DNA of 60,419 nucleotides, counting the filler. It is 7 parts of 7 records of this genome, joined end to end, with 100 filler letters (N's around TTAATTAATTAA, not from the genome) between each part and the next. Parts side by side here need not be neighbours in the genome. Positions count along the whole stretch, not along the records: positions 11,379 to 24,630 come from SRR31147125_18596; 6 more parts are not named here. One strand, given 5' to 3'. The position numbers and the translations under genes are program-made. The notes beneath the pieces were generated by a model. The model worked only from the letters and a program-made list of their open reading frames with translations, did no database searches and was not told where the DNA came from. Of the stretch, positions 5,604 through 53,645 are shown piece after piece (positions within the stretch are counted from its first letter, which is position 1; the number at the start of each line of letters is the position of its first letter).

Positions 5604-5703
5604 NNNNNNNNNNNNNNNNNNNNNNNNNNNNNNNNNNNNNNNNNNNNTTAATTAATTAANNNNNNNNNNNNNNNNNNNNNNNNNNNNNNNNNNNNNNNNN
5701 NNN
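5604..5703. other. Artificial contig spacer
   Basis: N44-TTAATTAATTAA-N44, stop codons in all six frames, identical at six positions. Confidence 0.98.
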
Positions 5704-11278: not shown

Positions 11279-11378
11279 NNNNNNNNNNNNNNNNNNNNNN
11301 NNNNNNNNNNNNNNNNNNNNNNTTAATTAATTAANNNNNNNNNNNNNNNNNNNNNNNNNNNNNNNNNNNNNNNNNNNN
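11279..11378. other. Artificial contig spacer
   Basis: N44-TTAATTAATTAA-N44. Confidence 0.98.
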
Positions 11379-12781
11379 AAAAAGCCGAGGTGGCAAGCCT
11401 TGCCAAAAGTGAATTTCTAGCCAACATGAGCCATGAACTTCGTACGCCGCTTAACGCCATCTTAGGCTATTCCCAGCTCATGCAACAAGATTCGGATCTT
11501 GAGGCGGAACAACAGGACTATCTGAACATAATCAACCGCAGTGGCGAGCACCTGCTAACGCTGATCAATGATGTGCTCGAGATTTCTAAGATCGAAGCCA
11601 AGCGCACCACCCTCAGCCCTACGGCCTTTGACCTTCACTCCATGCTTAGTGATGTTTACGGCATGTTTAAACTAAAGGCCAATGAAAAACATCTGGCCTT
11701 TGATTTTGATGAATCCGACGATCTGCCGCGCTATGTGATTGCCGATGCAAGCAAGTTTCGCCAGATCTTGATCAATCTGCTGGGCAATGCCGTAAAGTTT
11801 ACAGACATGGGCGGCATTGCCGTGCGGGCGCAAGTAAAAGACAAAACAGAAGAAAAATCATGCATAGAGGTCGAGGTAGAAGACACAGGTCCGGGCATCT
11901 CAGAAGAGGAATTGGAAAAGGTGTTTCTTGCATTTGAGCAAACTCAAAGCGGTAAGAAAATGCAAGGGAGTACCGGCCTGGGCATGGCTATCAGCCTGGA
12001 GTATGCCCGCCTGATGGGTGGCGACATTGCCGTTACCAGCCGTGTGGGGGAAGGCAGCAACTTTTGTTTTCATTGTATTGTCCACACGGCAACAGCAGCG
12101 GACTTAACAGCAGAAGCCCTGCAAAAACAAGTGGTCGGGTTAGTATCAGGGCAGGAGGTTCCGCGTATTCTGGTGGCTGAGGACAAATTGGAGAGCCGCC
12201 TGCTGCTGGTTAAATACCTTGAGCAGGCAGGTTTTGATGTGTACGCCGCAAAAGACGGCAAGGAGGCAGTAGAACTTTTTGAACAGTGGGCCCCCCATTT
12301 CATCTGGATGGATATACGGATGCCGGTAATGAACGGGCTTGAGGCCACTCGTCGTATAAGGAGCTTGCCAAGGGGAGAGACGGTCAGGATTGCTGCGCTT
12401 ACTGCCAGTGCCCTGGAAGAGGAGCGCGAGTTGATTCTTTCGGCAGGGTGCGATGAATTTGTGCGTAAGCCTTATCGGGTCTCAACAATTTTTCGGATAA
12501 TGGAAAAACATCTTGAACTGGAATATCTTTACAAGGAGAATGCCGCACTTAAGGCTGCTGAAGGTCGATTTGATCCTTGCTCCGTGAAACTGGACACTCT
12601 GCCAAAAGAGCTTTACAAAGCATTAACCCAAGCTGTCCTGGAATTAGACACGGATCGTACCCTGGCGCTGGTGGAAGAGATCAGCGCCAATGCCCCGGTC
12701 ACAGGAGCCGTTCTAAAGCAACTTGCCGAAAACCTAGAGTATGACAGACTCCTTGCCTTGTTGGAGCATAATCCATCTTAA
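11379..12781 (+). CDS. Hybrid histidine kinase (HisKA-HATPase-REC), 5' truncated
   Basis: [37 protein letters not shown] with WMDIRMP. Confidence 0.93.
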
Positions 12782-12806
12782 ATCAATGGGATTAGAGGTA
12801 TATTAA

Positions 12807-15160
12807 ATGAATCAACCCTTAGATGCTGAAATCCTGGTTGCAGACGATATCCCCGCCAACCTCAAGTTGCTGACCAATATCCTGAAAGCACAAGGGTACC
12901 GCGTTCGGCCGGCCCCCAATGGACAACTGACATTACGTTCTGCTGAAAGCAAATCACCTGATTTGATTCTTCTGGACATAAAAATGCCCGATATGGATGG
13001 CTATGAGGTTTGCAGGGTTTTAAAGGCCGACAAAAAAAATGCCGAAGTTCCGGTTATTTTTATCAGTGCCCTTGATGAGTCCCATGATAAGGTTAAAGGC
13101 TTTGAAGCCGGTGGCGTTGATTTCATTACAAAACCGTTCCAAGCTGACGAGGTGCTGGCCCGGGTTGAAACACACCTTTCTTTGCGACGCTTACATCAAC
13201 AATTGGAAAAACGAAATGAACAACTTCAACAGGAGATCTCCGAACGCCATAAGACCGAACAGGAACTGCGGGAACTTAACAACTTCAACCGCAAGATTTT
13301 CCAGACGACCAACTTAGGTGTGTTAGCCTATCACGGACGTACCGGGCAATGCGTCATGGCGAATCAGGCTGCTGCAAAAATCGTCAACGGTTCCGTAGAA
13401 CTGCTGCTTGCTCAAAACTTACAGACTCTCCAGTCGTTTCAAACACAGAACCGGTTGGCTATGGTTAAGCAGGTACTGGATACAGGTATCGAATTTGACG
13501 AGCAAGTACACACGGTGACCAGTTTTGGAAGAGAAGTTTGGCTGGAATGCCACGCCAGCCGTTTCCTGAACCATGGTGAGCCCCATCTTCTTTTACTGCT
13601 TCATGATATAACTGAACAAAAAAGTTTCCAGGAAACCCTGCAGCAGGCCAAAGAGGCAGCTGAGGCGGCCAACAAGGCCAAAGGTGAATTCCTGGCAAAT
13701 ATAAGCCATGAAATCCGTACACCGCTCAATGCAGTTATAGGATTCAGCGAATTGTTGTCATCCACCGTCAGCGACCCAAAACAGAAAAACTATATTCAAT
13801 CCATTCAAACTGCAGGAGAAAGCCTGCTCCAGCTTATAAATGATATTTTAGACCTTTCAAAGATCGAAGCCGGCAAATTTGAGCTAAGCTATACTCCCAC
13901 AAACCTGATCCGCCTAATAGATGAAATAGAACGGATTTTTTCCCAACAAGCGTTGAAAAAAATATCCGAATTATCACTGAAATTGTCTCTGAACTTCCCC
14001 CTTCCCTTCTCCTTGACGAAATCCGGTTGAGGCAGATTCTTACCAATCTGGTTGGAAATGCAGTAAAGTTTACTCAAACGGGTCAGATCAAGCTCTCTAT
14101 CAACAATGCAAACACGATTGAGACTGAGGATAACACCTTTGATATCGATATTTCCGTTGAGGATACCGGTATAGGTATTGCCGAAAATGACACAAACCGT
14201 ATTTTTGAATCCTTTAGGCAGCAATCTGGCCAGGATACGGCAAAATTCGGAGGAACCGGCCTGGGACTAACCATCTGTAAACGACTGGTTGAAATGATGG
14301 GCGGGAGCATATCGGTAGAAAGCACCCAAGGAGAAGGAAGCACCTTTACTGTGAGCATCCGAAATGTGGCAATTTCATCTAAAGAACATGCATCTGCTGA
14401 ACGAATGCCTAGTTATGGGACCATGAAGTTTGAAAAAGCAAGCATACTCGTGGTTGATGATGTTGAGTCAAACCGTAAATTCTTTAGCGAGGTCCTCTCA
14501 AACATGGGCCTTGATGTTTTGACAGCCGTCAACGGTAAGCAGGCCATAACGATCGCGGACAAGCATCTGCCTGATGCGATATTAATGGATCTGTCAATGC
14601 CTGTTATGGATGGAATTGATTCTACCAGACAATTGAAAATGTCCTCAAGAACGAAAAATATCCCCGTGATTGCCGTGAGCGCACGCCTTGTTCCTGAACT
14701 GCCTTCAGCAGTAGTTGAGAACGGATTGAATGGTTATCTTGCAAAACCGGTCAAGGCCGGTCAACTTTTTTCTGAACTATCAAAACACCTGCAAGTCGAT
14801 AAGAGTAAGGATAGAGAACCATCCCCGGCTGAAAGCGGTCTGCCAACTTCTATAGACGACCAATCTCCTGAAAAGATAATAAATCTTTCCGAACTCATCA
14901 ACGTCATTGACTCTGATCTCATGTGCCAATGGGAAGATTTTCAGAAAGTAATGCCCATTAAAACCATCCACAAATTCGGGAAAAAATTAGAAGCCCTGGG
15001 ACAAAAGCACAAGGCGACCCCTCTTGCCCATTACGGCAGAGATCTTTGTCGTTATACAGATAGTTTTGATGTTGAGAATATGAAAGTAATGATTGAAAAT
15101 TTCCCTGATATGGTAAATGAATTCAAATCGTTAGAAAGGACAACCAATGAAATCAAATAA
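12807..15160 (+). CDS. Hybrid kinase REC-PAS-HisKA-HATPase-REC, split by a frameshift at A7 13956-13962
   Basis: Adding one A gives continuous ...[41 protein letters not shown], joining ORFs 12807..14030 and 14027..15160. Confidence 0.9.
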
Positions 15161-15722
15161 AGACATCCCCGCCTTTTCCATTTTAATCGTGGATGATGAG
15201 CCCAAGAACATACAACTTTTAGGCAATCTCCTTGCAAAGAAACAGTATGACATCGAATTTGCCATGAATGGAAAAGAGTGTCTTGAATGGTTGAATAGAA
15301 AGCCGTTTGACCTTATCCTCTTGGACGTAATGATGCCGGGAATGGATGGTTATGAGGTTTGCGAAAAAATAAAATCCGACTATGGGACAAAACATATTCC
15401 AGTAATCTTTCTTACCGCAAAATCAGAAACAGAGGATATTGTAAAAGCATTTGATACCGGTTGTTCTGACTTTGTTAAAAAGCCGTTTAAGGCACCAGAG
15501 CTGCTAGCGAGAATAAAAAAGGAACTTGATCTGAAAACGCTGAGAGGATTGTTGCCAATATGCTCTCATTGTAAAAAAATACGAGATGATAAAGGATACT
15601 GGAATCAACTTGAAAACTACATTTCCAGTCATTCCCAGGTGGAATTCAGCCATAGCATCTGCGAAAATTGTTTGGACGAATATTATCCTGAGGAAACAGA
15701 TGAGGATGATGAATTTCAATAA
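15147..15722 (+). CDS. Response regulator with C-terminal four-cysteine domain
   Basis: REC (VDDE, LDVMMP, KPF) plus LLPICSHCKKIRDDKGYW...FSHSICENC. Confidence 0.9.
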   Translation: MKSNKDIPAFSILIVDDEPKNIQLLGNLLAKKQYDIEFAMNGKECLEWLNRKPFDLILLDVMMPGMDGYEVCEKIKSDYGTKHIPVIFLTAKSETEDIVKAFDTGCSDFVKKPFKAPELLARIKKELDLKTLRGLLPICSHCKKIRDDKGYWNQLENYISSHSQVEFSHSICENCLDEYYPEETDEDDEFQ

Positions 15723-15804
15723 GCCTTTGAAAGCACCTCTTTTACCTACATCAGGTAACTTCCAGCGAATTTTCCGAATTCCTCCACTTCCTTAGCACTG
15801 ATGC

Positions 15805-15870
15805 TTTTAACGCCCAGCCTCACAGGAGAGCGAACGCAGTGAGCGATTCCTGTGGAGGCGATTGTTAGCC
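15805..15870 (-). mobile_element. Integron attC site of cassette 3
   Basis: Minus strand: R'' GGCTAAC (overlaps stop) ...GCCTCCACAGGA...TCCTGTGAGGC... R' GTTAAAA; 66-bp imperfect palindrome with an extrahelical base. Confidence 0.9.
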
Positions 15871-16704
15871 ATGATTTCCAGCAACAAAGCGTGATGACTC
15901 GTTTATCCTAAATATATCAATAAGATATTCTTTATCATTTTCAATATTACACAATATTAGTACATCTTCTCGCCAGTCTCCAAAAATAGCGAAATGCACC
16001 TTTTCCGGATCAAGCTCACTGAAAGCTGAAGTGAGCTTCTCCAAATTTTGCTTAATGCTTGTTACTATCCATGCCCCCTGAAGCTGGACATCTGGATTAA
16101 CCGATTTGAATTTATTCTCGATACTTCTAAACATAAGTCTGTGATCATGCTCTTCCTTAGGTTCAATATCAGGCCCATTCATATTGTGAATAAGGTCTGC
16201 TTTTCTTCTCTTTACATCAAGCAATATCTTTCTTCCATCTTCTGGTGTTAGCAACCAATCGATTGTTTTATTTCCTTCTCCCTTTCCTTCCACTTCAAAC
16301 TCCATCTCTATCTCATCACTTACTCTATGCCCGGGGTACATTTCCGCTAAGACATCTAAATGCTTTTCTGGAACATTTAGCCTTTCTAAAAAAATATTTA
16401 ATTCTTCAACTTTTAGTCTTTTTGCTGCAACTTCGAGTGAAGATTTCAGTTTCTCCACAGGAACCCAAACATCTGTTCCCCATAAAAGCTCGCCGTCCAA
16501 GTCGTACGGAACTCCAAACTCGTAGCGCCATAGCCCCGTCATTTTATCTAGAAAAGCCCCAGAATCTAGAAGAGGAGAAGAAATCATTGTTATTAGCTTC
16601 TGGTCTTCTACCTCTAAAGACTGAAATAAATCATCATTCGTCAATAGTTCCGTTAAAGAACTCTTTTCTTCGATAACCTGTGGAAATATTGATTCTATAA
16701 ACAT
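15865..16704 (-). CDS. Integron cassette 3: hypothetical protein with PD-(D/E)xK-like motif
   Basis: Cassette bounded by attC sites; LAEM...KTIDWLL...ILLDVKRR fits an E...D...(D/E)xK nuclease pattern. Confidence 0.6.
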   Translation of the reverse strand: MFIESIFPQVIEEKSSLTELLTNDDLFQSLEVEDQKLITMISSPLLDSGAFLDKMTGLWRYEFGVPYDLDGELLWGTDVWVPVEKLKSSLEVAAKRLKVEELNIFLERLNVPEKHLDVLAEMYPGHRVSDEIEMEFEVEGKGEGNKTIDWLLTPEDGRKILLDVKRRKADLIHNMNGPDIEPKEEHDHRLMFRSIENKFKSVNPDVQLQGAWIVTSIKQNLEKLTSAFSELDPEKVHFAIFGDWREDVLILCNIENDKEYLIDIFRINESSRFVAGNHG

Positions 16705-16718
16705 ATCTCGGCCTAAAT

Positions 16719-16846
16719 GGCTAGCGGCGGTGATAACCTAAAAAATGGTGCGTACCAAGGAGTTTGAAATGCTGATAAACGTAATGCGTATGACATAATT
16801 ACCAGTCTCGCCAACCTCTTTTTTCAGGTTCATAAAATTGTTATAC
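16719..16846 (-). mobile_element. Integron attC site of cassette 2 (R' core mutated GTT->GCT)
   Basis: Minus strand: R'' GTATAAC, ATGAACCTGAAAAAA pairing with TTTTTTAGGTTAT, R' GCTAGCC; 128 bp. Confidence 0.75.
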
Positions 16847-17518
16847 ATTGTTTTTCATCATCTCTTCAATTGTTGTTCTATGGTTATAAAGTAGTCTATC
16901 TACTTCCCAACCATTTAAACTTGCTTTCTTGCCAACCTCTAAGTAAAATTTTTCTTCTTCTTCATATTTTTTGAAATTCAAACCTAAAAGTTTACTAATG
17001 GCTTTTATTCTGGCATCGATAGCAATAGAGTTTCTGAAGTCTTCATGATAAACATCCATCATTATATTACGCGAATACTTTGGACCAATACCATGGAATT
17101 GGCGTAGAAATTTGATTTTCTGTTTTCTGCCCTTTAAGGAAAAAAGCTTCTCTTTGGCGGTCTCTGGGCCACCCATATTTTTTATTTGAATGAAGCATTT
17201 TAAAATGTATTCAGCTTTTTTATTTGGCATTCTTACTTTAGCTTCTTTACAGACTAACTTGACTAGCGTTTCCCTATCGTATTCAAAGAGGGAATTTAAA
17301 TAATCATATTTGACTCTATTGTAATTTTCTTTATTACCGATCAAACCGTTCCAACCAGAAGAAAGGCCCATAGTAGAAAAACTTTGCAACAAAAAATGCC
17401 ATAGAAAGTCAGGACGTTTTATCTCCCTATAACCTTCTTTTTGTTCTTCAAGCATGTTTCTATTTTTAATAGATACAATTTCAAGAATCGATGCTAATAA
17501 CTCTTTCTGATCATTCAT
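16841..17518 (-). CDS. Integron cassette 2: helix-hairpin-helix DNA glycosylase/lyase-like protein (OGG-like)
   Basis: HhH motif LRQFHGIGPKYSRNI followed by IAIDARI, then Y...E and EVDRLLY, as in archaeal-type Ogg proteins. Confidence 0.7.
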   Translation of the reverse strand: MNDQKELLASILEIVSIKNRNMLEEQKEGYREIKRPDFLWHFLLQSFSTMGLSSGWNGLIGNKENYNRVKYDYLNSLFEYDRETLVKLVCKEAKVRMPNKKAEYILKCFIQIKNMGGPETAKEKLFSLKGRKQKIKFLRQFHGIGPKYSRNIMMDVYHEDFRNSIAIDARIKAISKLLGLNFKKYEEEEKFYLEVGKKASLNGWEVDRLLYNHRTTIEEMMKNNV

Positions 17519-17530
17519 TTTTTCCTTTTT

Positions 17531-17591
17531 TTATAACGTTGGAGTTCACCGGCGCGCGATCACGCGCGTCAGGTGAAACGACTTGTTATGT
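17531..17591 (-). mobile_element. Integron attC site of cassette 1
   Basis: Minus strand: ACATAAC AAGTC GTTTCACCTGACGCGCGTGATCGCGCGCCGGTGAAC TCCAAC GTTATAA; canonical R''/L''/L'/R' layout, 61 bp. Confidence 0.93.
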
Positions 17592-18095
17592 AATTGTCCT
17601 TAATTTTGCTTCCAGCATCTCGATAGGATATTTCCTCCCTATCGCGCTCAGGATATTCCTGTTTAATTCTTTGTTGATATCGTAAATATTGGTACTTTCT
17701 AATCCTCCATTAATATGTATTCTCCAATCTAGCTGAACCTTTTGATCGTTCATAGAGCCTAATACGCTTCGATTATTTGTTTTTGCGTAGAGGATATTCT
17801 TGAGTTCATTCAATACAGCTTCTATTTGTGGTTGAGCAAAACCTTCTTGTAATAGGTTTTTAAATAGGTGTTGGGTAAAGATGATATGGAAATTAGCAAA
17901 GTCCGTTTTTATTAGACGAGGAATAAACAGACTGTAAAGGGTAGAGTCGTTGGTGATGAGCACACATTTTCTTCTTTCTACTTTTACGAGATTGGCGTGC
18001 CAGCCACCCAGTATGCTATTTATTGGCTCAACATTGCAGGTTAGCTTTGGTTTAAATTCATTTAATAATTTTTGTGTACAACGTATTATCTGCAA
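17586..18095 (-). CDS. Integron cassette 1: DUF6933-like protein
   Basis: IRCTQKLL...LGGWHANL...RRKCVLITNDSTLYS...KTNNRSVLGSMND recalls DUF6933; stop codon lies within R'' of attC. Confidence 0.65.
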   Translation of the reverse strand: MQIIRCTQKLLNEFKPKLTCNVEPINSILGGWHANLVKVERRKCVLITNDSTLYSLFIPRLIKTDFANFHIIFTQHLFKNLLQEGFAQPQIEAVLNELKNILYAKTNNRSVLGSMNDQKVQLDWRIHINGGLESTNIYDINKELNRNILSAIGRKYPIEMLEAKLRTIT

Positions 18096-18114
18096 AGTTG
18101 TATTTCCTTTTATG

Positions 18115-18135
18115 ACATAACTTCTTTATATGTAG
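18115..18135 (-). mobile_element. Putative integron attI core site
   Basis: Minus strand ACATATA-AAGAA-G|TTATGT; the 7-bp core is the exact complement of R'' (ACATAAC) of cassette 1 attC and lies between the first cassette and the divergent intI. Confidence 0.75.
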
Positions 18136-18498
18136 CTGCTGTTAAATAGGGTGTGGTGAGTGTGCTGCTTGCCATTTTTCATACGTCTACTCAGATCTCA
18201 GTTGCCTAGTTTATTCCCTCACTCCTCACAGCGTATCCTTCAGGTATCAGATATGTAAGGATAATTATGTAACGTAACTCGCAGATACAAACGGTGCAAT
18301 ATTAAATTGTTAGGATTGCTACGCTGTGATATCGGGCTCAGACCAGGTTATCGGGCTGTCGTTTTAAATGCATTATCGATATACGATTGCTCGATTGAAA
18401 AGGTGGAACCGTGAAGAATGTCTGCAAATTGTGCTGTAATAGGTGGGCCGGAACATGTTATGTAGAGTCGTTTATATGCGGAAAATAACAGTGATTAT

Positions 18499-19538
18499 AT
18501 GGATAATACACGTGATTACAGTAATTTTGATGGTGCAGAATTTGGTGAGTTTCTGATACGGAAGGCTATTGTCCCATCCAGGCAGGCAAAGTTTTTCGTA
18601 CACTGGGTTCGAAAGTTTTTTGTTATGCGTGGTAAATGGAAGGTCGCCCACTGGTTTGAACAGGTTCCCTTATTTCTCGAAGCCTTGAATCATTCTGGTG
18701 CGGTTGAATCCTGGCAACTCCGACAGGCGGAGCAGGCTGTCCGTGTTTATTTCACCAATTACCTTCATGAAGATCCCGATCAACCTGTGGTGCAAAGCCG
18801 TCAGTTGAGTGATGATGCTTCCTTGTCATTTTCCGATATGGAGCAACGCTTTGTAGTACAGCTGAAAATTCGTAACTACTCCGCATCAACCCTTAAGACA
18901 TATCTGCAGTGGGTGAGACAATATCACCATTATTGTAATAAAGGTGATTCACAAGAGTTTGCACAGGTCTACAACCCCGATACAGTCAAGAATTTCCTCG
19001 CCCATCTCGCAATTCACAAAAACGTTGCTGCATCCACCCAGAACCAGGCATTCAACAGTCTGCTCATGTTTTTCAGGATGACGCTGAATATGGAATTGGG
19101 TGATCTCAAAGAAAACGTTCGAGCACGGTCCGGTAGAAAGTTGCCGGTGGTGTTTTCCGTTGAAGAGGTGCAGCGTCTGTTTGCCTGTGTGAAGGATAAC
19201 ACTGGCCTGGCCCTCAAACTCATTTACGGTGGCGGACTTCGGGTTAATGAATGTTGCCGGATTCGAATTAAGGATGTGGAGTTTGATCAGAGACTGCTCT
19301 TTGTCAGGAGCGGAAAGGGGGACAAGGATCGCTCCACACTGCTGCCCGAAACCCTCGTCTGTCAATTGAAAGGCCATGTTCAAGAGGTCTTTTCGCTTCA
19401 CGATCAGGATCTTGCCAGGGGCTTTGGGACGGTAAGGCTTCCCTCGGCCACTCCAGGGTGGAGACGACGATGATCTATACCCACGTGATCAAGGATATGA
19501 GAAACCCCGTCACCAGCCCACTGGATCTGCTGGACTGA
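18499..19538 (+). pseudogene. intI: Integron integrase, long N-terminal type, with internal deletion and frameshift
   Basis: VAASTQNQAFNSLLM, LPVVFSVEEV, LIYGGGLRVNE, VRSGKGDKDR, HDQDLARGFGTVRLP; jumps at 19443 into another frame reading LGHSRVETTMIYTHVIKDMRNPVTSPLDLLD*; the HxxR region is missing. Confidence 0.92.
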
Positions 19539-19724
19539 CTGGCGTTGGTTTTCATGAGATTCATTATGTATGCCGGACAGCCTGTTTTAGTGTAGCAGAC
19601 GCGCTTTAGATGATGATGGAGTAATGGCATTAATACGTTTTGCTCTGGAACCTCCGGCACAATTATGGTATTTCGGCATGCCAGTGAAGAAACGTATTCA
19701 CCAAAATTTGAGCCAGGTTTTGAT

Positions 19725-20189
19725 ATGAGCACAATTCCTCCCAACGTACGGGAATTCCTGAAACGACATAATTTGACTGCCCTGGAGTTCGAACCGGGGT
19801 CGACCCCGACCGCTGAAAAGGCCGCCCAGCGTATCGGCGTGCCCGTGGGCCAGATCGCGAAATCGATTCTATTCAAGGGCAAAGATGATGTCTTTCGCCT
19901 GGTCGTTGCAGCCGGAGATAAGAAAATCAACAGCAGCGCGCTGAAGCGGGCGACCGGGGCCAAACACCGGATGGCCAATGCGGAAGAGACCAGGGAGGTC
20001 ACCGGGTTTCTGCCCGGCGGAGTGTGCCCGTTCGGACTTGCAGGGGCTGATGTGGTGATCCTGCTGGACGTGTCGCTCGACGAATATGACACGGTTTACC
20101 CGGCCGCCGGCACCGACGCCACCGGTGTGCCGCTGAGTCCCGACTACCTGCTGGAAATCACCGAAGGGCAGAAGGTGGAGGTAACCTGA
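19725..20189 (+). CDS. YbaK/EbsC-family aminoacyl-tRNA deacylase
   Basis: TPTAEKAA, QIAKSILF, TGFLPGGVCPFG, VYPAAG; probable start ATG 19725. Confidence 0.9.
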   Translation: MSTIPPNVREFLKRHNLTALEFEPGSTPTAEKAAQRIGVPVGQIAKSILFKGKDDVFRLVVAAGDKKINSSALKRATGAKHRMANAEETREVTGFLPGGVCPFGLAGADVVILLDVSLDEYDTVYPAAGTDATGVPLSPDYLLEITEGQKVEVT

Positions 20190-20192
20190 TCC

Positions 20193-22164
20193 ATGCTGTC
20201 AGTCAACGGCCTCGACATCCGCTACGGGGAAAAACATCTCTTTAAGAATATCTCGGCAGTCGTTCACCCCGGCGACCGGATCGGCCTGGTCGGTGTCAAC
20301 GGCACCGGCAAGTCGACGCTGATGAAGATCATGGCGTCGGTGACCGTCGCCGACGATGGGGTGTTGAGCCGGTCCAAACACTTCACGGTGGCATACCTGC
20401 CGCAGGAGCCGTCGCTGGTCAGTTCGGGCAGGACCCTCTACGAGGAGGCGGTCCAGTCGTTTTCCCGGCTGCTGGATCTGCAGAGCGAGGCCGGGCGGTT
20501 GAACGAGGTGCTGGCCGACACGGAAATCGCTGACGGTGAAGTCGAAGCGCTGCTCGAACGGCAGGGAGAAATCCAGCAGATCCTCGACAACAGCGACATC
20601 TATACGATCCGCTCCCAGACGGAGAAGGTCCTGTTCGGCCTCGGTTTTTCGGAAGCGGATTTGCAGGCGGAGGTGTCGACCTTTTCCGGTGGCTGGATCA
20701 TGCGGCTGCTGCTCGCCAAGATGCTGCTGGAGTCCCCGTCACTGTTGTTGCTCGATGAACCGACCAACCACCTCGACCTGGAATCGTTGACCTGGCTCGA
20801 ATCCTTTCTACAAAGCTACCACGGGGCGCTGGTCCTCATCTCCCATGACCGGACATTCCTGGACCGGACCACCACCCAGACCTGGGAACTCAGCCTGGGT
20901 CGGCTGAACATCTACAAGGGGAATTATTCCCGGTACGTCGAAGACAAGGAAGAGCGGCGGCGCATCGAGAAGGCGTCGTACGATAACCAGCAGGCTCAGA
21001 TTCGCCAGACCATGCGCTTCGTCGAGCGGTTCCGGGCAAAGTCGACGAAGGCCAAGCAGGTCCAGTCCCGGCTCAAGCAGATCGAACGGCTTGACCTCGT
21101 CGAGTTGTCCGAAGAGGAGCATTCGATCAAGTTCACTTTCCCGGCGGCGCCGCATTCGGGGCGCGACGTGCTGATGGCCGAAGGGATCGGGAAGTCCTTC
21201 GGCGGGCGAACAGTCTTTGCCGGCATGGACCTGCTCCTGCAGCGCGGCGATAAGGTCGCCGTTGTCGGAGTGAACGGCGCCGGCAAGTCGACCATGCTCA
21301 AGATTCTCGCAGACCAGTTGCCGGCCGACAGCGGCTCGTGCCGACTCGGCAGCGGGGTGCTGCTGACCTATTTCGGTCAGCACCAGGCCCGGGAGCTGGC
21401 CCCCGAATTCACCGTGCTGGAGAGCCTGTCCCACGTCGCGGGTGACATGACGATGACCCGCATACGCTCCCTTCTCGGGGCGTTTTTGTTCCGGGGAGGA
21501 CGTCGACAAGAAGGTCTCGGTCCTGTCCGGCGGCGAAAAGAGCCGGCTGGCGCTTGCCCGGATGATCGCGGTGCCGGCGAACTGCATGCTCCTGGATGAG
21601 CCGACCAACCATCTTGACATGCACTCCCAGGAGGTGTTGCAGGAGGCGATGCGGCAGTACGACGGCACCATCGTGGTGGTGTCCCATAACCGTTATTTCG
21701 TGGATCGTTTCGTAAACAAGGTCCTGGAGATCAAGGATGGCGCGGCGACCCTCTACGACGGGACGATCGAGGAATACCTTGATCGACAGGAGCGGCTGGC
21801 GCTCAGGGACGCCGATAAGGCTGCAGCGGCAGCTCCCGCGGAAACCAATGGGTCGGCGAGGGGAGAGAGCAAAAAGGAAAAACGTCGCAAAGAAGCTCAG
21901 AGGCGCCAGAAACGTCAGCAGCTCGCCGGTCCGTGGCTGAAGAAACTTGCCGACGCGGAGGCGAAGGTGGAGGAGCTTGAGCTGCGGAAGGACGAGCTCG
22001 AGGCGGAGTTGGCCGACCCGGAGCTCTATCAGGACCAGAAGGCCTGGTCCGAAGTGAACGGCCGCTACAACGACTGCACGCGCAGGCTAGACCGCTGGAT
22101 GACCCAGTGGGAGGAAGCCCAGGCGAAAATCGATGAAGTCGATGCTGAGCAGGACTTCTCATGA
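20193..22164 (+). CDS. ABC-F family ATPase, split by a frameshift at G4 21493-21496
   Basis: Two ABC cassettes (GVNGTGKS, FSGGW, LDEPTNHLD twice); the restored reading FRGEDVDKKVSVLSGGEKSRLAL joins both ORFs; C-terminal coiled coil. Confidence 0.93.
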
Positions 22165-22198
22165 AACGCGTTGGTTTGTGACCGGATTGTGCCTGAAA

Positions 22199-22227
22199 TT
22201 GACATCTCCCGGATGCTGGGGTACAAC
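22199..22227 (+). promoter_or_regulatory. Sigma70-type promoter for the rubredoxin-domain gene
   Basis: TTGACA-17 bp-TACAAC. Confidence 0.6.
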
Positions 22228-22269
22228 CAGTCGAAGAAGAGCGATGTGTACAGGTTTTGATATCACTAA

Positions 22270-22412
22270 AGGGAACCTTGAATAATTGTCTTTTGGCCTA
22301 AACTCTGCGTTGTGCGTGAAAATTTTATCATCGACATATCAATTCGGCCTGCGGTAAAATTTCCACACGCGTCTTGATTTTGAACCAAGATCCGAAGTAT
22401 TCAAGGTTCCCT
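22270..22412. mobile_element. MITE-like element, 143 bp
   Basis: Perfect 15-bp terminal IR AGGGAACCTTGAATA / TATTCAAGGTTCCCT with an internal imperfect IR; lower GC than flanks. Confidence 0.7.
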
Positions 22413-22432
22413 GAACAATCTTGGAGGAAGCC

Positions 22433-23269
22433 ATGAAAAAGTGGGAATGCACGGTGTGCGGCTATATCCATGAAGGGGAGGAGCCACCGAGCGAGTGTCC
22501 GGTGTGCGGCGCCGGTCCCGAATACTTCAAGGAAGTGGAAGCGAAAGAGCAGGCTGAGCAGAGTGGACAGCCGGAGCAGCCGGAGACGGCGGTTCCTGTC
22601 GATGAGCCCCCTCCCGCACCGGCAACAGCGGAGGCTGGCAGCCGCGGAGCTGGAGCCGGAAGCAGGAAGTGGGAGTGCACGGTATGCGGCTATATCCACG
22701 AGGGGGATGCGCCGCCGGATCAGTGTCCGGTGTGCGGGGCCGGACCCGAGTACTTCAAGGAAATCGTCGAGAGGGCTGGCGAGACCCTGACCGAGGGGGC
22801 GCTGGCGCCGGAAGGGGCAGAGTCCGAATCAAAACCGGGCTTCCTGCGCGCCCAGGTCATGAAGCACCACCTCCACCCGATTTCCGTACATACCCCGAAC
22901 GGAGTATTGCCGGCGGCGCTGGTCTTCCTCGCGCTGGCTGTCGTTTTCGGTGTGAGCGGGTTCGAGCTGGCCGCCTTCTTCAACCTGGTGTTCGTGCTGC
23001 TGACGATGCCGTTCGTGATCGCCACCGGCTTCATCGCGTGGCAGGACCGGTATAAAGGGGTCATGACAAAAATTTTCGGGCTGAAAATCGGGGCTTCGAT
23101 TGTGGTCACTGCAACGCTTCTGGCGCTCGTCGTCTGGCGTCTGGTTGATCCGGAAGTGGCGACGTCAGCGGGATGTTGGACCTACCTGGTTATCTGTCTT
23201 GTGTCGGTCGGTGCAGCGGGACTGGCGGGTCATATGGGCGGCAAGCTGGTGTTTGGCTCCAGGGACTGA
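22433..23269 (+). CDS. Tandem rubredoxin-like domains plus DUF2231-like membrane domain
   Basis: Two copies of [21 protein letters not shown], then HPISVHTP, four TM helices and [17 protein letters not shown] before ATG 22433. Confidence 0.85.
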
Positions 23270-23294
23270 AAGTAAGACCTCCCTGGAGAAAATG

Positions 23295-23344
23295 AAAAGC
23301 CGGATTCGGTCTGCACCATTTGATGCAGACCGAATCCGGCTTTT
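23295..23344. terminator. Bidirectional terminator
   Basis: Perfect 21-bp arms AAAAGCCGGATTCGGTCTGCA / TGCAGACCGAATCCGGCTTTT between convergent genes. Confidence 0.85.
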
Positions 23345-23366
23345 GTGTTTTACAGGGCGGAGACGT

Positions 23367-24563
23367 TCAGCTCTTCAGCGCCTCGGCGATTGAATCACAT
23401 ACATAGTCGATGTTCCCGGCCGTCAGACCGGCGACATTGATCCTGCCTCCGCCGACGACATAGATACCGCGGTTTTCGCGGAGCCACGCAACCGTGTCGT
23501 CATTGAGGCCGCTGAACGAAAACATTCCCCGCTGCCGGGTGATAGAGGAGAAGTCCTGTTTGACCCCCCGTTGCGCCAAGCCGTCAACCAGCGCGGAGCG
23601 CATGCCGACGATGCGGCTGCACATGGTAGCCAGCTCGTCACGCCACTGGCTGGTCAGCGCAGCATCGGACAGCACCGTCTTGACGATGAGTCCGCCGTGC
23701 GCCGGCGGATTGGAGTAACAGACCCGCACGGTGAGGTTGAGGTGGCTCTTCGCTACTGCCGCCTCTTGCGCGTTTGCGCTTACGACGGTGATTGCCCCGG
23801 CGCGTTCGTTGTAGAGCCCGAAATTCTTTGAGAACGAGCTGGACACGAAAAAATCCACGCCGGCGGCGGCGAAGGCCTCCACGCTGGCCCGATCCTCTTC
23901 AATACTGTCCCCAAATCCCTGGTAGGCGAAGTCAAGGAATCCGATCCACCCCTTCTCGGCCGCGATCGCCGCGACCTCCTGCCACTGATTGCCGGCCAGG
24001 TCAACGCCGCTCGGATTGTGGCAGCATGCATGCAGCAGGACGACGTCGCCCGCGGGAATGTTCTGCAGCGCCTCGATCAGTTCGGCGTATTTCAAGTCCT
24101 TGGTGTCGCTGTCGTAATAGGGATACTCCCTGATGTCGAAACCGGCCGCACCAAATATACCTTTGTGATTCGCCCAGGTGGGGGAACTTATCCAGGCGGT
24201 GCCGGTGGGGTTGAACTTTCTGACCAACTCCGCGCCGATCCGCAAACCGCCGGTTCCACCCGGCGCATGGGCGGTAACTGCCCGCTTCGATGCGATGACC
24301 TCGCTGTCTTCGCCAAACAGCAGTTTCTGGACGCACTCGGTATACACCGGGTCGCCGGAAATCGGCAGGTAGCTCTTCGTCTGTTCGCTGCTGAGCAGGA
24401 TGCGCTCCGCCTCTTTTACACTCTCGAGTACCGGAGTGATTCCCTGATCATCTTTGTAGACGCCGACGCCGAGGTTAACCTTGTCGGGGTTGGTGTCGTT
24501 CTTGAATGCCTCGGTCAGCCCGAGAATGGAGTCGGGCGGGGCGGCTGTCACTGATTTCCACAT
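23367..24563 (-). CDS. aspC: Aspartate/aromatic amino acid aminotransferase (class I)
   Basis: KVNLGVGVY, HACCHNPSG, DFAYQGFG, SFSKNFGLYNERAG, GRINVAG. Confidence 0.93.
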   Translation of the reverse strand: MWKSVTAAPPDSILGLTEAFKNDTNPDKVNLGVGVYKDDQGITPVLESVKEAERILLSSEQTKSYLPISGDPVYTECVQKLLFGEDSEVIASKRAVTAHAPGGTGGLRIGAELVRKFNPTGTAWISSPTWANHKGIFGAAGFDIREYPYYDSDTKDLKYAELIEALQNIPAGDVVLLHACCHNPSGVDLAGNQWQEVAAIAAEKGWIGFLDFAYQGFGDSIEEDRASVEAFAAAGVDFFVSSSFSKNFGLYNERAGAITVVSANAQEAAVAKSHLNLTVRVCYSNPPAHGGLIVKTVLSDAALTSQWRDELATMCSRIVGMRSALVDGLAQRGVKQDFSSITRQRGMFSFSGLNDDTVAWLRENRGIYVVGGGRINVAGLTAGNIDYVCDSIAEALKS

Positions 24564-24630
24564 ACAGATTCCTCTTTGATTAACAATGTTGGTAAAATTC
24601 GAGTTGGAAAAATAATTAGGCAGGTGGGGG

Positions 24631-24730
24631 NNNNNNNNNNNNNNNNNNNNNNNNNNNNNNNNNNNNNNNNNNNNTTAATTAATTAANNNNNNNNNNNNNN
24701 NNNNNNNNNNNNNNNNNNNNNNNNNNNNNN
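24631..24730. other. Artificial contig spacer
   Basis: N44-TTAATTAATTAA-N44. Confidence 0.98.
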
Positions 24731-28482: not shown

Positions 28483-28636
28483 TTTCTTTGTATTTTTCTT
28501 TAAACAGAACACAAAACTAACAAAATCAATTCCCGAAAATATCTTTTAGTCACAAAAAGTTTAAAAACTCAAACAATTTTACATACGAGATAAATATTAT
28601 TATCTATTCGTACTTTTGTCGTTTAAATTTCGCCAA

Positions 28637-33833: not shown

Positions 33834-33933
33834 NNNNNNNNNNNNNNNNNNNNNNNNNNNNNNNNNNNNNNNNNNNNTTAATTAATTAANNNNNNNNNNN
33901 NNNNNNNNNNNNNNNNNNNNNNNNNNNNNNNNN
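33834..33933. other. Artificial contig spacer
   Basis: N44-TTAATTAATTAA-N44. Confidence 0.98.
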
Positions 33934-44998: not shown

Positions 44999-45098
44999 NN
45001 NNNNNNNNNNNNNNNNNNNNNNNNNNNNNNNNNNNNNNNNNNTTAATTAATTAANNNNNNNNNNNNNNNNNNNNNNNNNNNNNNNNNNNNNNNNNNNN
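44999..45098. other. Artificial contig spacer
   Basis: N44-TTAATTAATTAA-N44. Confidence 0.98.
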
Positions 45099-53545: not shown

Positions 53546-53645
53546 NNNNNNNNNNNNNNNNNNNNNNNNNNNNNNNNNNNNNNNNNNNNTTAATTAATTA
53601 ANNNNNNNNNNNNNNNNNNNNNNNNNNNNNNNNNNNNNNNNNNNN
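53546..53645. other. Artificial contig spacer
   Basis: N44-TTAATTAATTAA-N44. Confidence 0.98.

Follow-up and report, generated by a model that had tools for sequence, protein, structure and literature searches.

What has become of a compact array of AT-rich genes that lies beside an integrase gene, and what could its genes be for? The locus that raises this question occupies positions 15805-19538 of a 60,419-nt stretch of DNA (the window), where a first-pass annotation had described an integron with a divergent integrase gene, intI, and a compact defence cargo. We find that the locus is almost certainly an integron with three cassettes. The best explanation overall, which we hold to be probable, is a frozen Desulfobulbales-type chromosomal integron with three stand-alone anti-phage genes: it would have taken up three single-gene cassettes, unrelated to one another, through IntI-mediated recombination at attI, in an order that from their positions would be nuclease, then glycosylase, then DUF6933, and would then have frozen. 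Its parts are the following.

15805..15870, minus strand: attC3, 66 bp, canonical; R'' GGCTAAC at 15870-15864, R' GTTAAAA at 15811-15805; end of the array.
15865..16704, minus strand: gene of cassette 3 (279 aa), from a family without a name; about 105 N-terminal aa precede a C-terminal domain of PD-(D/E)XK type (E121, D149, D163-x-K165).
16719..16846, minus strand: attC2, 128 bp, degenerate; R'' GTATAAC at 16846-16840, R' GCTAGCC at 16725-16719 in place of GTTAGCC.
16841..17518, minus strand: cassette 2 gene, 225 aa, DNA glycosylase from the HhH (helix-hairpin-helix) superfamily with the Ogg2 fold, Fe-S cysteines absent; residues K147, D168, D207 and Y211; C-terminal Lys missing.
17531..17591, minus strand: attC1, 61 bp, canonical; R'' ACATAAC at 17591-17585, R' GTTATAA at 17537-17531.
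17586..18095, minus strand: gene of cassette 1 (169 aa, starting with TTG), encoding a DUF6933 protein; match to PADLOC candidate PDC-S63.
18115..18132, minus strand: attI; core GTTATGT at 18121-18115, crossover after G 18121; the core is the exact complement of the cassette 1 R''.
18499..19538, plus strand: intI pseudogene, long Desulfobulbales-type class; 5' part 18499-19449 in frame, remainder 19443-19538 in another frame.

The open reading frame (ORF) of intI encodes 324 aa, compared with about 430-445 aa in its relatives; it is approximately 52% identical to named Desulforhopalus and Desulfoprunum integrases and matches TIGR02249 at 199 bits, below the cut-off of 265. It aligns with the relatives up to the residues LPSA and is then out of frame, with LGHSRVETTMIYTHV... 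directly after in a different frame, and a 7-bp direct repeat, CTCGGCC (19443-19449), is common to both halves. Considering that 85 residues separate the junction motifs in nine of nine relatives, we can calculate that 262 nt are missing, a length whose phase gives the frameshift seen; such a deletion would arise by slippage or recombination between the 7-bp repeats. The full catalytic set of IntI is R, K, H-x-x-R, H and Y. Here the first Arg and the Lys are kept, the IntI insertion (patch) and the HTLRHSFATH (H-x-x-R) box fall within the deletion, and the frameshift takes in the His/Tyr motif, the terminal 31 residues, catalytic Tyr motif included, lying out of frame. Judged by its sequence, the gene does not encode a complete functional integrase; because the insertion and the H-x-x-R box are lost and the catalytic Tyr is out of frame, the predicted integrase is dead, and no second, intact intI occurs elsewhere in the window. 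The locus is a relic, its integrase pseudogenised, rather than a working integron. According to the accessible part of PMC2426708, intI pseudogenes are frequent, making up nearly one third of intI genes.

The attI site adjoins the 5' end of the divergent intI, and the three genes are co-oriented and each closed by an attC site, attC2 being recognisable by its boxes though degenerate. All of the attI, R' and R'' cores that had been quoted are present in the sequence. The attI motif ATAAA(G/A)AAGTTAT also stands upstream of intI, about as far away, in two of the eight relatives inspected (L175 and L176), and an 18-codon ORF (18126-18182, minus strand) ends at the TAA of this motif, in frame with cassette 1, which recalls the short attI1 peptides of class 1 integrons. 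At the other end, attC3 stops approximately 80 bp short of a convergent response-regulator gene. The attC sites were scored with a covariance model of our own rather than that of IntegronFinder, trained on 17 attC sites from other loci (68.8% of the cells of its alignment are paired, compared with 60.7% in shuffles), which misses long or divergent sites. It gave attC3 30.9 bits (E 2e-4) and attC1 26.1 bits (E 2e-3), with the next match in the 60-kb window at 9.6 bits (E 7.4); the attC3 score is not fully independent, since six of the 17 training sites follow relatives of cassette 3. No score was returned for attC2, so that two of the three sites claimed earlier stand in this model and the degenerate one does not. 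A pattern scan with strict rules found attC1, at a rate of one match in 30 shuffles of the contig; attC2 appeared only when the GTT rule was relaxed, and attC3 was missed there and found at a lower threshold. Another strict match, at 28568-28627, is unscored by the covariance model and was taken as chance. Folding of the plus strand as DNA gave z-scores of -4.2 for attC1, -2.7 for attC3 and -0.75 for attC2, the attC1 and attC2 stretches being offset and the latter, which folded no better than shuffles, lacking its R'.

IntI cuts at the GTT triplet of R' and requires it. At attC2 this triplet has been lost, as R' reads GCTAGCC whereas cassette-3 relatives begin with GTTAGCC or GTTAACC: such starts occur in 25 of 69 loci and GCT in none, compared with 6 of 1380 random windows, in a count where the motif was picked after the data were seen and some loci are near-duplicates. 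The GCT is also present in a second assembly, a Logan contig of run X1. The array would now move only if another IntI were supplied, and cassettes 2 and 3 would then tend to move as one block.

The cargo itself looks sound: all three cassette ORFs are full length with catalytic residues kept, and cassettes 1 and 2 have AGGA ribosome sites. Most can be said about cassette 2. Its AlphaFold2 model (pLDDT 92.8, the predicted score of the local distance difference test) matches Thermotoga maritima Ogg (3n0u) with a VIA Z of 17.6 and a root-mean-square deviation of 2.5 over 192 aligned residues, and MjOgg by Foldseek at E 1.7e-4; its closest solved structures are all Ogg2 repair enzymes. In sequence, the Pfam Ogg-HhH score is 14 bits against a cut-off of 27, and a search of solved structures returned Ogg only, at E 0.13. 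A profile alignment (hhalign probability 80.9) with five Ogg2 proteins, extracted from seven loci, places K147, D168, D207 and Y211 on the Ogg2 Lys, Asp, late Asp and Trp, and ends ahead of the GKILK tail. Among 170 unfused family members of 200-260 aa, K147 is conserved in 168, D168 in 166, D207 in 165, and Tyr or Phe at position 211 in 160; the model thus places the HhH Lys and Asp dyad on an Ogg2 fold. A C-terminal Lys is found in only five of these 170, whereas all five extracted Ogg2 proteins end in LK. As far as the available part of PMC3397491 goes, the terminal Lys of Ogg2 is strictly conserved and truncation abolishes cleavage of 8-oxoguanine (8-oxoG). Cassette 2, predicted to lack the Lys needed for this cleavage, is on that account not an Ogg2.

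The family is large and scattered. We collected 426 homologues and, at 50% identity, 611 clusters, at least 245 of them with E under 1e-30, from Planctomycetes, Verrucomicrobia, Acidobacteria and Desulfobacterota; one relative, P0045 (WP_272788357.1) from Vibrio tubiashii, is 57% identical. Cassette 2 is 88% identical to another full-length protein and departs from consensus at four well-conserved positions. The range is patchy, with 61 loci in a pattern-limited scan of 185,579 species genomes, and the GC content (GC) of the gene lies below that of its flanks in 47 of 52 loci. Only a minority look cassette-like, with seven attC model matches across the 61. A heuristic attC scan also undercounts (3/56 and 7/52 downstream matches, control 26/1128), and because of this undercounting and the model's blindness to long or divergent sites neither yields the true cassette fraction. 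No significant match to cassette 2 was found in PHROGs, by phage tblastn or in a viral fold library. Around the 61 loci we took 237 neighbouring ORFs, no more than five at each; Pfam was run on all of them and PADLOC on a selection of 60. By hand count, near-duplicates included and without a background control, a gene for defence, toxin-antitoxin or mobility lies nearby in 22 of the 61 loci. One relative lies inside an Hma system, between hmaA and hmaB on plasmid NZ_CP128402, another directly behind a 20-repeat CRISPR array on NZ_CP030366, and a third, together with one other gene, between cas1 and cas2 (L022:1586-5177); further relatives adjoin Mrr, a type I methyltransferase or HmaA, and one follows type I-G cas genes and an HNH gene. 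In four Verrucomicrobia (L019, L020, L028, L058) a LysR-regulated operon, which also holds an ABC-type ATPase with DUF3696 and a 300-aa unknown, ends with the glycosylase. Fusions to HD, TPR, dual-specificity phosphatase, ankyrin or PD-(D/E)XK domains also occur (P0391, P0405, P0421, P0423, P0428, P0436, P0466, P0499), and in most of the 80 long forms scanned the additional part has no Pfam match.

The Dag proteins, integron-borne HhH proteins that destroy phage DNA of the 7-deazaguanine type, Dag1 using K118, D184 and W188, are described in the accessible text of bioRxiv 10.1101/2025.10.29.685425, in which the locus prefix of V. tubiashii does not occur. Cassette 2 most likely resembles these anti-phage glycosylases more than anything else, by analogy of fold and residues. 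Some anti-phage role is rather probable; that the target would be a modified guanine is possible, close to an even call. The enzyme would flip a phage guanine of the 7-deazaguanine type into its Ogg2-like pocket (D207, Y211), excise it by means of the K147/D168 dyad and nick the strand, fragmenting the phage genome. Loss of the Ogg2 C-terminal lysine would remove the specificity for 8-oxoG, and we infer that the Ogg2 pocket would be a natural starting point because 7-deazaguanine and 8-oxoG both lack a hydrogen-bond acceptor at position 7.

Cassette 3, with 189 homologues, has no Pfam, NCBIfam or PHROG match, no match on plasmids and nothing useful among solved structures by sequence. Its model (pLDDT 88.6) finds PD-(D/E)XK nucleases as best fold matches (Z 6.4-6.8) over residues 108-276, and Foldseek finds BsmI at E 6e-3. 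E121, D149 and K165 are present in 121 of 121 members, as is D or E at 163, which reads as the E...D...(D/E)xK motif of the PD-(D/E)XK superfamily; the N-terminal part carries an invariant W-R-Y-E motif. The protein is most likely a metal-dependent DNA endonuclease, and it probably serves defence. The family often travels in cassettes, the core starts given above for attC2 being present in 25 of 69 loci. We considered 80 metagenome loci, dropping nine near-duplicates; Pfam was run on 117 of the 128 neighbouring ORFs and PADLOC on a selection of 30. Among the neighbours are Wadjet II, Shedu, Olokun, type IV Mrr, a ThsB-like TIR protein with a SLATT gene and a Dsr1-like protein, as well as HipA, MqsRA, integrases and resolvases. 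No methyltransferase was seen beside cassette-3 relatives in the scanned ORFs, which suggests that the nuclease would be modification-dependent or infection-triggered. The gene has lower GC than its flanks in 25 of 37 loci, a weaker contrast than for cassette 2. At five loci (L077, L081, L086, L087, L134) a conserved protein of approximately 747 aa without Pfam match is encoded directly upstream of the nuclease, with Shedu downstream in one; it is possible that the two form a two-gene system.

Cassette 1 matches PF22016 (DUF6933) at 158 bits and PDC-S63 at 102 bits (E 6e-30, residues 4-151), the latter by score of the hidden Markov model (HMM) alone, without PADLOC's score and coverage rules. 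Sequence searches against solved structures gave nothing useful, and no paper on DUF6933 or PDC-S63 was found in the literature. The domain is present in 15 of 351 genomes of the order. A twin, 73% identical and with a similar attC, lies in another array of the same order (L197:134-2723), which has four attC matches and toxin-antitoxin-like cassettes. Three hand-picked DUF6933 neighbours are a type I specificity subunit, a type II restriction enzyme and PDC-S23; on three Methylomonas plasmids the gene adjoins a pRiA4b ORF-3 gene. Cassette 1 is therefore put forward as a defence candidate by association, and tentatively, the role being somewhat doubtful.

Although relatives of all three genes adjoin known defence systems, the three cassettes are separate genes and not one system, because families 2 and 3 never co-occur in 141 related loci: no cassette-3 relative is found in the 61 cassette-2 loci and no cassette-2 relative in the 80 cassette-3 loci, and neither set contains a relative of cassette 1. 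Of the compact defence cargo proposed earlier, then, the defence association of homologues, which we checked, stands, as do the integron origin of the cassettes and the labels DUF6933, glycosylase and nuclease, but the cargo is not a joint module.

Several observations weigh against a frozen integron of stand-alone anti-phage genes. No convincing cassette promoter (Pc) was found: two promoter-like sites matching at 9 of 12 positions lie on the cassette strand upstream of attI, and the total of five sites is fewer than in shuffles (9.8). In the literature searched we found no experimental test for any one of these families, and PADLOC has no model that fits cassette 2 or cassette 3. The likeness of cassette 2 to the Dag families is one of description, and where the accessible Dag text gives W188 of Dag1 as the stacking residue the cassette-2 family has Tyr or Phe. 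The neighbourhood counts have no background control and include near-duplicate loci; by the same hand count 39 of the 61 cassette-2 loci show no defence neighbour, some stretches being too short, and in five Acidobacteria (L043, L046, L049, L053, L059) the glycosylase is flanked by the genes for E1 alpha and E1 beta within a 2-oxoacid dehydrogenase operon, and several of the copies in this set look split. The nuclease fold scores are under Z 7, the tool's ambiguous range; GNAT, LysE and housekeeping genes also neighbour cassette-3 relatives; GNAT, LysE and further non-defence cassettes ride in integrons as well; and cassette 3 departs from its family at several well-conserved non-catalytic positions (among them P42S, I123Y and M79V), possibly through decay.

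We think it unlikely that cassette 2 is instead an accessory repair glycosylase, acting on 8-oxoG or another damaged purine to aid an anaerobe under oxygen, with the array as a mixed cargo. Such a role would suit the Ogg2 structures nearest to it, the alignment of the K/D dyad and of the positions equivalent to D194/W198 with Ogg2, the label 'thermostable 8-oxoguanine DNA glycosylase' that several relatives carry from automatic annotation, and the many relatives found among housekeeping genes; yet the C-terminal Lys on which 8-oxoG cleavage depends (PMC3397491, in its accessible part) is all but absent from the family, many members carry C-terminal fusions, the Pfam Ogg-HhH score stays below its cut-off, and the distribution is patchy, AT-rich and mobile, with one relative embedded in Hma. 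Far less probable still is a glycosylase-nuclease module in which the change at attC2 was selected to keep cassettes 2 and 3 joined. The two are adjacent, co-oriented and linked by the sole broken attC, and P0466 fuses a glycosylase to a PD-(D/E)XK domain (weak match, E 2e-4), but each has its own attC, and a conserved pair was rejected on the zero co-occurrence noted above.

About as unlikely as the repair enzyme is the view that the whole array is a silent, decaying relic whose cassettes are unexpressed and being lost: against the two separate lesions in the recombination machinery (intI and attC2), the want of a clear promoter, the unusual substitutions in cassette 3 and the roughly one third of intI genes that are pseudogenes in the accessible part of PMC2426708 stand three full-length ORFs with their catalytic residues, the two AGGA ribosome sites and a cassette 2 that has so close a full-length relative and strays so little from consensus. 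It is highly improbable that the integron is active and its intI deletion an artefact of assembly. The window assembly does contain indel errors nearby, at 13955, 16739 and 21492 when compared with the Logan contigs of run X1, which form a second assembly of the integron piece at a depth of about 5-11. However, the intI junction is identical in Logan contig 4 (17552-21901), which joins cassette 1, intI and the right flank with identical letters and a sole gap at 21492, and the deletion size fits a clean repeat-mediated event. Run X1, the only public sequencing run that matches the stretch, is probably the source of the window itself, so that assembler error is ruled out, while a rare intact allele may exist. 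Returning to the frozen array of stand-alone genes, one can extend it into a bolder joint reading, rather unlikely as a whole: cassette 2 would be the type member of a cross-phylum anti-phage family, arisen from Ogg2 by loss of the C-terminal 8-oxoG sensor and now destroying phage DNA with modified guanine, cassette 3 a defence of a new kind, a lone nuclease gene whose sensor domain has not been described before, and the intI and attC2 lesions would have been favoured, turning a shuffling array into a fixed defence islet. If this were true, the target guanine might be one not yet known from phages of anaerobes.

The window joins seven unrelated pieces (GC 0.35-0.54) by N spacers at 5604-5703, 11279-11378, 24631-24730, 33834-33933, 44999-45098 and 53546-53645, so that adjacency across a spacer is meaningless; the integron lies within the piece 11379-24630. 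Besides contig 4, a Logan contig at 13596-17571 joins the left flank to the cassettes, and over the array and intI the letters are identical apart from one additional A at 16739; because these contigs bridge flanks, cassettes and intI, the layout is not one assembler's chimera. A hybrid histidine kinase gene (12807-15160) and an ABC-F gene (20193-22164) look split because of the indel errors at 13955 and 21492, respectively, where the Logan contigs have an extra base. The AT contrast noted in the first-pass annotation holds fully against the right-hand side (19700-24560, GC 0.60; cassette ORFs 1, 2 and 3 at 0.35, 0.32 and 0.38) and less so against the left-hand genes (11390-15722, 0.45) and intI (0.47-0.48). 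At third codon positions (GC3) the right flank reaches 0.69-0.83, intI 0.50 and the left-hand signalling genes 0.39-0.53; since GC3 of intI and the left-hand genes is below that of the right flank, the integron probably lies within a larger acquired stretch, which the hybrid kinases and response regulator at 11390-15722 may share. The ABC-F/rubredoxin/aspC block of the right flank is syntenic in relatives, with ABC-F identity of 71-84%, and in none of nine related regions does intI or ybaK lie upstream of the ABC-F/rubredoxin(/aspC) block; the best relatives of ybaK, 80% identical, are in other gene contexts. The conservation of position expected of a sedentary chromosomal integron is thus absent from these nine regions; closer strains may differ. 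A repeat search revealed no insertion sequence ends or island boundaries, and an Rfam search no match. In the ESM Atlas the nearest clusters are hypothetical proteins, with DUF5784 at 0.88 a lead only. The named best IntI matches are Desulforhopalus, Desulfoprunum and Desulfobulbaceae integrases, which fits a Desulfobulbales-type host and agrees with the sulfate-reducer-like host proposed earlier.

Defence-rich integron arrays and dead integrases are already known, so that little is gained from the integron as such; of more interest are two families missed by standard libraries, each a single gene. Both are unnamed in the literature searched, and the glycosylase family could already figure in the supplementary tables of the Dag preprint. 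Were the glycosylase to act like Dag, base-excision immunity would extend well beyond Vibrio and there would be a simple structural account of a repair enzyme turned weapon; such glycosylases also serve as modified-base probes. The nuclease family would add a new candidate for defence by a single gene.

Compared with known systems, cassette 3 shares fold class and catalytic motif with the nuclease domains of Shedu, NucC, Card1/Cdn1 and Mrr, and neighbourhoods with Shedu and Mrr, but it matches no sequence model and has an N-terminal part of its own, in which no CARF or known sensor was recognised. For cassette 1, the PDC-S63/DUF6933 HMM match spans most of the protein, in a class that consists of predictions from genomic embedding, namely in BREX, DISARM or type I restriction-modification systems according to the accessible text of bioRxiv 10.1101/2024.01.29.577857. 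The array as a whole resembles the defence-rich arrays established for sedentary integrons of Vibrio (bioRxiv 10.1101/2024.07.02.601686) and for the BRiCs of mobile integrons (bioRxiv 10.1101/2024.07.02.601719), which, as far as their accessible text goes, share the attI/attC array, small AT-rich single-gene cargo and nuclease-type folds; here, in contrast, there are three cassettes, a dead integrase and a Desulfobulbales-type host, at a locus not conserved in nine relatives, and the available main text of neither paper mentions a glycosylase. Ogg2 (MjOgg, SsOgg, TmOgg) is the best structural match of cassette 2, with K147, D168 and D207 aligned to its Lys, Asp and late Asp. Identity is only 16-19%, however, the C-terminal sensor Lys is missing, Trp is replaced by Tyr/Phe, the Ogg2 HFLRN motif reads RNIMMD, and cassette 2 is mobile whereas Ogg2 is housekeeping. 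With regard to Dag, the second Asp of cassette 2 lies at K+21 whereas D132 of Dag1 is at K+14. At the same time, the Dag proteins (Dag1, Dag2 and further families), as the accessible part of bioRxiv 10.1101/2025.10.29.685425 presents them, have in common with cassette 2 the HhH fold, a cassette-borne, AT-rich and patchy gene near defence or mobile genes, and an HhH Lys with a late D-x-x-x-aromatic pair, an equivalence drawn from spacing and Ogg2 rather than from alignment with Dag1. In that same text, 17 of 22 further integron HhH proteins protected, and Dag homologues lie within 20 kb of defence or mobile genes in approximately 45% of cases, compared with 3.1% for housekeeping enzymes.

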